NCBI GenBank assembly: GCA_010093605.1
Contig: MU004188.1
Location: 1,677,673-1,721,038, forward strand
Source: Lophium mytilinum
Taxonomy: Eukaryota
Length of the DNA: 43,366 bases
Direction: 5' to 3'
Shown here: positions 7,232 through 10,642 of the stretch, one piece after another
Layout of the letters: the number at the start of each line of letters is the position of its first letter
Numbering within the stretch: position 1 is the first letter of the stretch
The notes under the pieces: model-generated
What the model was told of the DNA's origin: nothing
The model's database searches: none
The model's input: only the letters and a program-made list of their open reading frames with translations
Made by a program: the position numbers and the translations under genes

Positions 7232-7345
7232 ATGACTCACGCGCCCGCTCATTATATTCAGTCAACTTTGATTACGTGGTCATGGGTGTAGCAAGTATGA
7301 TTCAGCAGTCAAGAGTCACGACCAGTCACAGTCATCAAGAGTCAT
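7232..7345. promoter_or_regulatory. Cluster of Gcn4/CPC1 response-element-like sites
   Basis: ATGACTCA 7232-7239, variant ATGATTCA 7297-7304, GAGTCA 7313-7318 and AGAGTCAT 7338-7345. Confidence 0.45.
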
Positions 7346-7725
7346 GTTTAAAGAAAGTGTTTAATTTAAAGAAGTACTAAAGTAGTCGCGGTCCCTCCTT
7401 AGAGGAAACCGTCCGAAATCAAGGAAAGGAAAGAAGCCTTGTGAAGTTCGCGAAGAGCGACACAAGAAATCTGCAGCAAAGAAGAGGCCAAACCACGAGT
7501 CAATCCCCGAAGAGAGACATCAGAACGGCCGGCGCAAGGAAGAACAGAGAAGGTGAAACCATTCCGAACCCCATACAAGACGCGACAAGCACGCCAAATG
7601 GAAGGGAGGATAAACCCAGAGAACCAACATAAAGAAACCATAACTTTTCGGGAACACGACCGTAGTCAAAAAGGAGAAGCTCCCAGCTTCTCAAGCCGAC
7701 AAAGCGCACACGACGCTGTGGGCAA

Positions 7726-8514
7726 TCACGAGCCACTGTAACCGTGTGCAAAAGCAATGCTCTTCCACTTCTCCAACTCGCTCTCCAACTCCGCGTTCTT
7801 CTTCTCTAGGGTGGAGACATGGTCGAATTTCCGTTGGCGTGAGTCACGAGCAGCAAGAGTATTGCGAGCGCGCTTCAAGGCGACCTTGTCAAGAGGGTCA
7901 ACAGCAATAGGGGGAAGAGGGCCCTTGCGACGTCGGGCTTTGACACCATTTGCAGCAGAATGGGTGGCTGGCGATCCCTGGACCGATGACTTGCGCCTGT
8001 GGGAGCCGTCTAGAATCACAGGAGAGTTGGTGCTTGACGAGCTAGATCGCGCCATGGAGTTGCTGCTAGCAGTGCGCTCCAGAGGATTGGATGTTGGCTG
8101 CGAATTCTTGTCGTTGCTCTCAGGAAAAAGTGTGAACCAGGCGTCAGAGCCTTGGAGGTCGCTCTCTCCGTTGTACAGTGGGGAGGTGTCATAGCTATCC
8201 GTGATGAAAGGCGAGTCGCCGATGTCGGGAGACGTGAGGTTCGTGAATGCGGCGGACGGTGGAGCCGATGCTAGAGGATCCTGGAAAATGTCCTTAGGAG
8301 ACACAGTCCGGGTCGAGCCAGCCGCCGAAACGTCGTTGACAGGCGTGAAGGTCGAGGGCGAGAAGTCCCACATATCCGCGCTGGTGTCAAGGTGTCCGTA
8401 GGCCGCGCCGAGCCCCGTACCCATCGAGTCGTATGCCACGTTGATGTCTGAAGCGTGCGTTAGATTTGTGCGTAGATGCGGACGACGCGCAGATGGGTAG
8501 GTATTACCAGCCAT
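7726..8514 (-). CDS. cpc-1: Cross-pathway control bZIP transcription factor CPC1/CpcA/Gcn4 (exons 8514-8508, 8447-7726; 242 aa from the AUG)
   Basis: Basic region and zipper DKVALKRARNTLAARDSRQRK..LEKKNAELESELEKWK; conserved TVSPKD, SAPPSAAFTNLTSP and WxxLF (AWFTLF) motifs; 60-nt intron GTAATA..CTAAC..CAG after ATG GCT G. Confidence 0.95.
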   Translation of the reverse strand: MAGNTYPSARRPHLRTNLTHASDINVAYDSMGTGLGAAYGHLDTSADMWDFSPSTFTPVNDVSAAGSTRTVSPKDIFQDPLASAPPSAAFTNLTSPDIGDSPFITDSYDTSPLYNGESDLQGSDAWFTLFPESNDKNSQPTSNPLERTASSNSMARSSSSSTNSPVILDGSHRRKSSVQGSPATHSAANGVKARRRKGPLPPIAVDPLDKVALKRARNTLAARDSRQRKFDHVSTLEKKNAELESELEKWKSIAFAHGYSGS

Positions 8515-8662
8515 ATTTCCGGGGTGATGCAGTTGCTGATGAATGTTTGGTGTGCTATTGCCAGAGAAAAGAGGTACCGGTGGACGAGTAGAAGTGCGTT
8601 GTTGATGTTGCTGGAATCCTACTGATGATGAGGGAGCAGAATTTGCGTAAAAGTGTTGGAGG

Positions 8663-8824
8663 TTAAACGAATGCCCAGGCTGAGGAGCGCTCGGTCGACG
8701 TTGGGGCCTTGAGACCTCTGCCGGCTGATCGAACAGGACAAAGTCCACTTGCGGTGGGACGAATTCGGTTTGGGACAACGGTGGTAGCGGCCGTGAGGCT
8801 TGAGAAGCTGGTGAGGGAAGCCAT
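8663..8824 (-). promoter_or_regulatory. cpc-1 uORF2 (53 aa, MASLTSFSS...AWAFV*)
   Basis: One of only two upstream AUGs between 9169 and 8515; out of frame with the main ORF; stops 148 nt before the main AUG. Confidence 0.85.
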
Positions 8825-9023
8825 GTTTGTTGGGAAGCCGTGGTGAACGACGTGAAGTCGAACTGAGAAATTGTTACTTGGGGCGAACTGAAGCTGCGCG
8901 GGGCTAGGCTTGGGTTCAGAGGTCCTGGTGAGGGAGACTCTGAGGGGGGTTGGTGAGTGGAGTGGGTTGGTGTTGCGTTGGTAGCTATAGTGTCGGCGGG
9001 GGGCGACGGAGTGGGAGGGGTGG

Positions 9024-9035
9024 TTAGACAGCCAT
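9024..9035 (-). promoter_or_regulatory. cpc-1 uORF1 (Met-Ala-Val-stop)
   Basis: ATG GCT GTC TAA; a three-codon uORF1 like that of Neurospora cpc-1. Confidence 0.85.
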
Positions 9036-10642
9036 GCCTGTGGATGTCTATGTGTTGTGTTGTATGTGAAGAGGATGTAAGATGGAGAAAGAAAAAGGAG
9101 GCAAGGCAGCGAGGAATTCGCAACCTTAAGTGCGACCGCTGCCTGATCGCTTACGAAGGGCCTTGGCACGTTATGACTCTTACTTTTGTGGAACTGGCTG
9201 TGCGCTGCCGAATGAGAGCCGGAGGATGCGCCGTCAGCCCTTGAAACAGCCAGCGCTTAGCCTCACCGGGCAAGGCCACGCACGCGCCTCGAGCTGAGCG
9301 AGCCGGCTTTCTGCGCAGCCACACGCCTGTCCGCGGTGGCTCTCAGGCTTGCCGGACGGTCGCTTCACCGTTCGGAATGCTGTGCCAGCGGGGCAGAGGA
9401 CCTCAAACAGTGCTAATCAACTGGACACCAGCTTAGACAGAGCGTTCATTTCAAAGGGAAAATGTTGTGTCGGTCTTGGCATGGATTCGCGGACTGCCAC
9501 TTTCTGCGCGGTGGGCGGAGTCGGCCCGGCCGCGGATCCCTGCACACTCGGCGTCCCGATGGATTTATCGGGGCGAGAGGCCGAAGGGGAGGCCGAGGGG
9601 CACAAAGTGGAGGCCTGCTGCTCGAGAATGGATTTCTGTTCGACCCGCCCATTCGCAACGCCGCTGCACTTCCCATTTGCTTCCAATCGTCTCCAGGAGC
9701 ATTCAACGCTCCAAAAGCAGCTCCGGTCGACGGCCGCGCATGTGAGCCGGGTAAATTCCGCCCTTGCGCCGCAGTATCGCAAGCTTTGCCCAAACTAGGC
9801 GCCGGCGGCCCATGTGCATCGCCCCGCAGCACGCCCTACCGTCGACTTGCGCACGCATCAGGGACGCACGGCGACCATGATACGAACGCGGGACAAACGG
9901 GCAGTGCACTCCAGCGCCCTTTTCGATTGCGACCACTCCGCCGGCCGCGGGCGTGGGGAACGAGGTGCTACGTACAGCAGGGAGAAGCGGCGGTGAACGC
10001 CCTTTTCTGCGAGCCTCACCAGCCCCAGAAGGGCAGCACAATATTTCGTAATCTGCGCCGTCTAACCTTGCGACGTTCCAACAAGGTTGCAATCTGACTC
10101 ACCAAGCAGCTGCAGCCCGTGCGTATCAGATCCCCGCTCCCCACTCTCCACCAACCACTCCGTCGATCCCGTCGTGAAGCACTCCATCGTGAAACAGATG
10201 TCACGTGCTTATACATCTCAAGATCCATTTTCACTACCACCTACATTCTCATCTCCCCTGCCTTCTTTAGCGAGGAGCGTATGTGTGATTGCCGTTTGTA
10301 TAATTTCTACACCGAATAGAGTGCTCATACCCCAGCTCCCTCGAACAGAAAGTGGTAGTTAATTCTGTGGGTTTGAAATTCAAAAGCTTGCCTAACTCCA
10401 CTCCTCCAGTGCATACTTTCTCTGTGTTGTGCGCGCTTGCCTAACTCCAATTAAGGTCCTTTGATGATGGTATAAAAACTGTAAAGTGACGCTTTTAGCA
10501 AGCCTGATAGAAGTACCGTCCATCTCAGACAGTCTTAAACTACCACCTCATGTTCCATGGAGCTTGTCGCATAGCAAGATACGAATGTCCGTTGCGAGAA
10601 CACCAATGCCCACTTGTGGGACGATGTCAGACTGCCATTCAC

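Follow-up and report, generated by a model that had tools for sequence, protein, structure and literature searches.

Can a 5′ leader that holds no in-frame AUG supply an N-terminal extension to the protein encoded downstream of it? This question is raised by a CPC1-type gene on contig MU004188.1 of the Lophium mytilinum assembly GCA_010093605.1, which we analyzed within a stretch of 43,366 nucleotides (nt; forward-strand positions 1,677,673 to 1,721,038), referred to as the window in the following; all coordinates are those of the window. As master regulator, CPC1/GCN4 governs the response to amino-acid starvation, and its control by upstream open reading frames (uORFs) is a textbook case of translational regulation. 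We conclude that, besides the AUG-initiated protein, this gene probably gives rise to N-terminally extended CPC1, initiated at near-cognate codons upstream of uORF2, with ACG 8841 as the best-supported start. Near-cognate-initiated extensions of this kind have been described for cpc-1 of Neurospora crassa and other Pezizomycotina (Ivanov et al., 2017, mBio; PMC5487733), and we adopt the published numbering of the near-cognate codons (NCCs), in which ACG 8841 corresponds to NCC8.

The gene and its leader lie on the minus strand of the window; a preliminary description of the locus had given no strand, and its coordinates check on this one. A stop-to-stop frame of 474 codons (9150–7729) carries a bZIP domain at its end, where residues 421–464 of the translation match PF00170 (bZIP_1) with an E-value of 7.3e-06 and 26.4 bits, slightly below the gathering cut-off of 27.6. 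A protein search with the translation from CTG 8919 returned 486 homologs, many of them named cross-pathway control protein 1 or general control protein GCN4 and bearing precomputed PF00170 assignments. Judged by this homology, the gene is a CPC1/cpcA/GCN4-type bZIP ortholog of a Dothideomycete. The public L. mytilinum model (P0002, ‘hypothetical protein’) is 100% identical over its 242 residues and starts with MADINVAY, which means that it begins at ATG 8514 with a 60-nt intron removed and omits the extension. Upstream of this AUG, the same frame runs through 212 sense codons (9150–8515) with neither a stop nor an ATG, and the peptides that had been read from it in the preliminary description, VDFVLFDQP, HFYANSAPSSS and RPPVPLFS, are all present in its translation.

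This frame is kept open in related genes. From metagenomes we fetched 80 related loci, of which 11 lacked the anchor motif PPVP[LMIF]F and were dropped, seven because the contig ends before the extension and four as distant sequences (L071, L073, L074 and L077; 33–41% identity). The remaining 69 were reduced by 14 duplicates to 55 non-redundant loci, and four of these are cut upstream of NCC8, so that 51 loci and the window, 52 sequences in all, entered the comparison. From the NCC8 column to the main ATG, the CPC1 frame contains no stop in any of the 52 sequences. In the other two frames, the stops add up to 47 and 132, and 15 and none of the sequences, respectively, are stop-free. In-frame AUGs were, together with stops, reported as absent between NCC8 and the main AUG in all 51 related loci. 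In-frame stops in orthologs, which the preliminary description had named as evidence that would speak against the extension, are thus not found in this interval.

The amino acids of the CPC1 frame downstream of ACG 8841 are under purifying selection. On a nucleotide alignment built without regard to frame, we calculated ratios of nonsynonymous to synonymous substitution rates (dN/dS, Nei-Gojobori) between the window and either all 51 loci or its eight closest relatives. For the CPC1 frame, these are 0.37 and 0.37 over 8841–8663, 0.30 and 0.28 over 8781–8663, and 0.25 and 0.16 over 8662–8515, while the other two frames range from 0.78 to 2.98 over the regions between 8841 and 8515. The uORF2 frame gives 0.78–1.25, i.e. 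the uORF2 peptide is without selection in its own frame. Codon-level conservation, proposed earlier as a check, is also apparent in the column entropies for CPC1 codon positions 1, 2 and 3: they amount to 0.75, 0.85 and 1.18 over 8781–8663 and to 0.73, 0.77 and 1.27 over 8662–8515, a clear third-position excess, and to 0.60, 0.45 and 0.69 directly after NCC8. In RNA contigs of close relatives, the three substitutions listed for this region (8557, 8650 and 8752) all fall on third positions of the CPC1 frame; 36 further differences across 7300–9900 lie outside that listing. At the protein level, about 44 of 120 listed database matches cover at least 85% of the query and therefore include the extension. 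An alignment of 34 extension-covering proteins shows an invariant W as well as the invariant motifs DF.L, F..Y..SAP and PPVPLF, with as many invariant residues in the extension as in the protein body outside the bZIP domain.

Several points weigh against this interpretation. Of 20,000 dinucleotide-preserving shuffles of the 636-nt open stretch, 531 were free of in-frame stops (212 codons; p ~0.03); for the shorter part of 109 codons that begins at ACG 8841 and ends before the ATG, this was the case in 3746 of 20,000 (p ~0.19). In the window by itself, the open frame is thus only weakly unusual, and the case consequently rests on the relatives and not on the length of the frame; it is through conservation in the relatives that we set aside a chance open frame. 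The anchor motif, in turn, sits inside the extension, so that the locus set favors loci that conserve it; the 34 aligned proteins were chosen because the extension was covered; and the pairwise figures between the window and the loci are not phylogenetically independent. Upstream of NCC8, in a part that aligns poorly, neither dN/dS nor periodicity prefers any frame (8919–8842 and 8988–8920), and the column entropies are flat. For starts located there, the evidence accordingly consists of codon conservation and frame maintenance. Finally, the near-cognate codons of Neurospora yielded less than 1% of the main AUG's luciferase output in vivo (PMC5487733).

The weak statistics of the window would also suit a leader without any translation in the CPC1 frame, conserved owing to constraint on the RNA or on the uORFs and open in that frame as a by-product. 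So would the stretch from NCC6 to about 20 codons past NCC8, where the three codon positions are similarly conserved, as fits a constraint on start contexts. Such constraint, however, does not account for CPC1-frame dN/dS values of 0.16–0.30 over 8781–8515, where the other frames give at least 1.06, or for a frame that is stop-free in 52 of 52 sequences next to frames with 47 and 132 stops; moreover, no consensus RNA structure was found, and the uORF2 peptide is itself unselected. We therefore regard an untranslated leader as very unlikely. A conserved hairpin at NCC8 and the uORF2 AUG, considered as a source of the conservation or as an enhancer of initiation, was rejected: RNAalifold on 25 sequences gave −1.41 kcal/mol with four pairs and no compensatory changes.

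Five in-frame near-cognate codons upstream of uORF2 are candidate starts of the extension. The preliminary description had listed ATA 8988, ATT 8871, ACG 8853 and ACG 8841, which are in frame as it said, with 109 additional residues for ACG 8841, and had overlooked CTG 8919. Both A at −3 and G at +4 are found only at ACG 8841 and ATA 8988. The ACG of NCC8, which is located 17 nt before the ATG of uORF2, is conserved with this context in 50 of the 51 related loci (five of them placed one alignment column off), the exception being L070 with AAG. This matches the situation across Pezizomycotina, where 98 of 100 species have ACG as NCC8 and A−3 and G+4 are invariant (PMC5487733); the context in the window, UUCACCACGG, is the consensus and the commonest entry in Fig. 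S2A of that study. An ACG at the 8853 column occurs in 36 of the 52 sequences. An in-frame ATG inside the extension or close to it occurs in three loci: 41 codons before the main ATG in L015, 147 codons in L016, and 127 and 124 codons in L070, the locus without the NCC8 ACG. Lineage-specific switches to an AUG start are possible in these cases.

The columns of NCC6 and NCC7 were anchored via L072 and L080, two loci with contexts identical to Sordariomycete entries in Fig. S2A. NCC6 is CTG in 46 of the 47 related loci that cover it, and NCC7 is ATT or ATC in 14 of 43. In the published set, NCC6 (CUG or UUG) and NCC7 (AUU, AUC or AUA) are present in 77 and 74 of 100 species and hence not obligatory (PMC5487733). 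Lophium is absent from Fig. S2A, and every Dothideomycete row there has NCC8 only, whereas the window has NCC6 (CUG), NCC7 (AUU) and NCC8. The context of its CTG, GGACCUCUGA, is identical to Eurotiomycete NCC6 entries of that figure, and Pleosporales-like loci have gaacctCTGa in this column (L024, for instance, is 92% identical to a Pyrenophora tritici-repentis protein). In a motif search that disregarded frame, the distance from NCC6 to NCC8 proved to be in frame in 47 of 47 sequences, at eight different lengths.

This last result bears on an alternative that Ivanov et al. raised themselves, namely that ribosomes starting at the uORF2 AUG (8824) reach the CPC1 frame through a +1 (or −2) frameshift, without any near-cognate initiation. 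The relation of the two frames is indeed constant: in all 52 sequences, uORF2 lies in the −1 frame with respect to CPC1, as in all species of PMC5487733, with an ATG 17, 20 or 23 nt after NCC8, A−3/G+4 and a length of 44–55 codons. Also, the clear coding signal of the CPC1 frame begins only about one third into uORF2. Yet the CPC1 frame is kept upstream of the uORF2 AUG as well, both in the in-frame spacing of NCC6 and NCC8 and in the encoded peptide PLN...FDFTS.TTAS, for which a shift inside uORF2 is no explanation; in addition, 50 of 51 loci have an ACG with A−3/G+4 that precedes the uORF2 AUG by 17–23 nt. Furthermore, no conserved RNA structure was found around the site, and mutation of NCC5–8 in Neurospora abolished specific in vitro products (PMC5487733). 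Frameshifting thus appears improbable as the source of the extension, and near-cognate initiation remains the explanation that we prefer. The earlier proposal that 8663–8824 is dual-coding stands insofar as two frames are probably translated there; the uORF2 peptide, though, shows none of the selection seen in the CPC1 frame.

The position of ATA 8988 is a fourth one at which a near-cognate codon is conserved. The uORF1 stop precedes it by 35 nt, and NCC8 follows 49 codons further on. Of 40 related loci, 39 contain ATA, ATT, TTG or CTG in its column (the exception, L013, has CTT); with an ATA one residue off in another three loci, the position is near-cognate in 42 of the 43 loci in which it is readable, and the context has A−3 in 39 and G+4 in 34 of 41 sequences. 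Codon usage in the column is strongly skewed: 21 of 26 isoleucine codons are ATA, compared with 3–5% elsewhere in these genes, and 14 of 15 leucine codons are CTG or TTG, compared with 32–39%. A motif search disregarding frame placed this motif in frame with NCC8 in 34 of 35 hits, while the uORF1 ATG occurs in all three phases relative to NCC8 (22, 3 and 13 sequences). Maintenance of the frame therefore begins between uORF1 and ATA 8988. The lack of a dN/dS signal over 8988–8920 counts against a start at this codon, for which support is weaker than for ACG 8841. The column may be the counterpart of Neurospora NCC5, but this is a guess.

RNA data place these codons on the transcript. Contigs of run X1, with no mismatches to the window, cover 8813–9053 at a depth of about 23,000 (between 8751 and 8813, parts of the leader lack X1 contig cover), and a contig of run X2, from a related organism, is colinear with the window over 7347–9057 except for the 60-nt intron. 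Contigs of all four runs have a splice joint at 8447/8508, with GT..AG on the minus strand, and hence derive from spliced RNA. As the contigs reach about 9053, all five near-cognate codons and uORF1 are on the mRNA, and a transcript start downstream of 8841, the other adverse finding named in the preliminary description, has no support. Contig ends are a weak hint of a transcription start; the main 5′ end is probably near 9055, upstream of which the depth in X1 drops from about 23,000 to 474. This also affects the extent of the open frame. The preliminary description had given it as about 200 stop-free, ATG-free codons, beginning at 9123, an in-frame TTG 203 codons upstream of the ATG. While the figure agrees with our count, the part from 9150 to about 9056 is probably incidental, since it lies upstream of the probable main transcript start and since the reading frame upstream of the ATA column is not kept in relatives. 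In addition, X1 has low-depth contigs at 9024–9412 (depth 474) and 9557–9900 (depth 82), compared with about 20,000 over the gene, which could represent minor upstream starts or a neighboring transcript.

The stretch of depth 474 could also be taken to indicate a long isoform with a conventional AUG start, which an upstream exon or an alternative transcript would place in frame. In the databases, many models of relatives do begin with a methionine far upstream of the extension (e.g. P0004, P0006 and P0010), and P0001, an 80% identical protein from an assembled run, is modeled with a methionine five residues before the ATA column (MSTPADNIATNATP...), which could be an ATG or an alternative start set by the gene caller. 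The N-termini of these database models, however, do not align with each other (alignment columns 1–260). In the window, no in-frame ATG is found between 9150 and 8515, the frame being closed by the TAA at 9153–9151, and the sole joint in the RNA contigs of the four runs is the intron downstream of the AUG. An in-frame upstream ATG in the open stretch is missing from 41 of the 55 non-redundant loci; among the 69 loci with the anchor motif, ten have one (L012, L015, L016, L018, L019, L022, L029, L057, L058 and L070), mostly 124–241 codons upstream. Overall, an AUG-initiated long isoform seems extremely unlikely to us.

By analogy with Neurospora cpc-1, initiation at near-cognate codons and accumulation of the resulting isoforms would probably proceed as follows. 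Of the ribosomes that continue scanning beyond uORF1, or take it up again behind it, a minority would start at ACG 8841, and fewer at CTG 8919, ATT 8871 and perhaps ATA 8988. These ribosomes would read across uORF2 in the CPC1 frame and on through the main AUG, yielding CPC1 isoforms with 109 to about 158 additional residues, the synthesis of which would escape repression by uORF2. Given the low reporter output in Neurospora, the extended isoforms may be rare. The permissive and inhibitory roles of the two uORFs were demonstrated for Neurospora (PMC5487733); in the window, where we see their arrangement, uORF1 would, as in N. crassa and yeast, permit reinitiation, and uORF2 would block it unless eIF2-alpha is phosphorylated. 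The elements involved are summarized in Table 1.

Table 1. Elements of the CPC1 locus of L. mytilinum, from the upstream end of the open frame to the end of the gene.
Feature	Position	Strand	Remarks
In-frame TAA, upstream bound of the open frame	9151..9153	-	upstream of the apparent main RNA 5′ end
Apparent main mRNA 5′ end	9052..9057	-	high-depth X1 contig to 9053, X2 to 9057, X3 to 9052
uORF1	9024..9035	-	ATGGCTGTCTAA; M-A-V-stop; 4 codons including stop
ATA, in-frame	8986..8988	-	gacactATAgct (gacactATAg); A−3/G+4; +158 aa; fourth conserved near-cognate position
CTG (NCC6)	8917..8919	-	ggacctCTGaac (ggacctCTGa); +135 aa
ATT (NCC7)	8869..8871	-	gtaacaATTtct (gtaacaATTt); +119 aa
ACG, in-frame	8851..8853	-	gacttcACGtcg; poor context (T−3, T+4); +113 aa
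ACG (NCC8)	8839..8841	-	ttcaccACGgct (ttcaccACGg); A−3/G+4; +109 aa; best-supported extension start
N-terminal extension	8515..8841	-	109 codons; CPC1-frame coding signature; DFVLFDQP, HFYANSAPSS, RPPVPLF
uORF2	8663..8824	-	ATG 8824 to stop 8665–8663; 53 codons, stop not counted; overlaps the extension in the −1 frame with respect to CPC1
Main (annotated) AUG	8512..8514	-	first in-frame ATG; start of P0002
Intron	8448..8507	-	60 nt, GT..AG, directly after ATG GCT G; in frame, stop-free; RNA joint; spliced in P0002
Main CPC1 ORF	7726..8514	-	242 aa once spliced; C-terminal bZIP; stop codon included

The architecture of the locus closely follows the published one. In 100 Pezizomycotina cpc-1 homologs, two AUG uORFs of 3–6 and 35–70 codons, stops included, are combined with an in-frame extension free of stops and AUGs, with uORF2 always in the −1 frame (PMC5487733). 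Like these, the window combines uORFs of 4 and 54 codons, the second in the −1 frame, with an open, AUG-free leader. Its CPC1-frame dN/dS resembles the published values of 0.348 (NCC8 to AUG) and 0.285, and it shares the weaker coding signal that is reported from NCC6 to the first third of uORF2, together with raised synonymous conservation from NCC6 to early uORF2. In N. crassa, NCC5–8 initiate in vitro, and the ribosome footprints that lie between uORF2 and the AUG follow the CPC1 frame (PMC5487733). The preliminary description was therefore right to call this a described mechanism: the window has every sequence feature by which the published cases are defined, and it is a further case of what is known from Neurospora and about 100 related fungi, with nothing new in principle.

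More distant systems share parts of this arrangement. GCN4 of Saccharomyces cerevisiae, an orthologous bZIP protein controlled by delayed reinitiation via uORF1 and uORF4, has a similar succession of a short permissive and an inhibitory uORF, as far as the roles assigned to the uORFs of the window by analogy hold; unlike the window, GCN4 and other Saccharomycotina and Taphrinomycotina homologs have no in-frame extension (PMC5487733). Basidiomycota cpc-1 homologs, by contrast, likewise have a stop-free in-frame leader with near-cognate codons upstream of a long inhibitory uORF. Among them, the Agaricomycetes differ by a single near-cognate codon 5′ of uORF1, conserved in position and variable in identity, and by an extension of about 120 residues; the homology of the extensions in Basidiomycota and Pezizomycotina is unresolved (PMC5487733). 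An analogy drawn in the same study concerns mammalian C/EBP alpha and beta, bZIP proteins whose isoforms arise from alternative starts around a uORF, including a non-AUG start. Here the gene is unrelated and shorter isoforms come from downstream AUGs, and no homology is claimed.

Beyond the published account, the locus offers three possible additions, which we put forward tentatively and, as a set, consider rather doubtful: a start codon besides the three published ones, i.e. the conserved position of ATA 8988; a broad occurrence of NCC6 in Dothideomycetes, joined by NCC7 in the Lophium lineage; and an intron behind the AUG that is always in frame. The locus itself shows that a Dothideomycete lineage, too, has the full set of conserved non-AUG codons, and the fourth start position and the intron are small leads for work on cpc-1 translation. 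A conserved non-AUG isoform that escapes uORF2 would add a second, poorly understood output to the CPC1/GCN4 circuit. For annotation pipelines, the locus is a clean, transcript-supported example of an extension that the public model leaves out.

The intron deserves further description. In 21 unspliced related loci in which both of its ends could be placed, an intron after ATG GCN G is 48, 51, 54 or 60 nt long, and reading through it is stop-free in every unspliced locus; it is found in L001, L002, L013–L015, L021, L022, L024, L029, L031, L035–L037, L039, L041, L043, L048, L050 and L063. Because its length is a multiple of three and it lacks stops, spliced and unspliced mRNAs both hold the extension and the protein body in one frame. 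The X1 contigs contain the spliced form only, with no intron retention seen, but contigs drop rare variants, so that its absence is not implied. A literature search on cpcA introns led to one paper only, on L. maculans, in which the gene is described as intronless; this is at odds with the Plenodomus lingam model P0028, which has an in-frame segment resembling an intron. Through the intron, an exon junction comes to lie about 155 nt behind the uORF2 stop; speculatively, this junction could couple translation of uORF2 to mRNA decay that depends on the exon junction complex.

As for the extension itself, it is rich in proline (17%), serine (14%) and glutamine (14%), contains short conserved motifs and yielded no Pfam domain, which suggests a disordered regulatory or activation segment. 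Lastly, uORF1 is recognizable in relatives as ATGGCTG(C/T)CTT(C/T)TAG/TAA, with 4 codons before the stop, 123–231 nt upstream of NCC8 and in varying frame. The uORF1 of the window (M-A-V-stop) lacks one codon relative to M-A-(A/V)-F-stop, the form present in nearly all relatives. With a main 5′ end near 9055, its AUG would follow the cap by only about 20 nt, and this proximity could favor leaky scanning.

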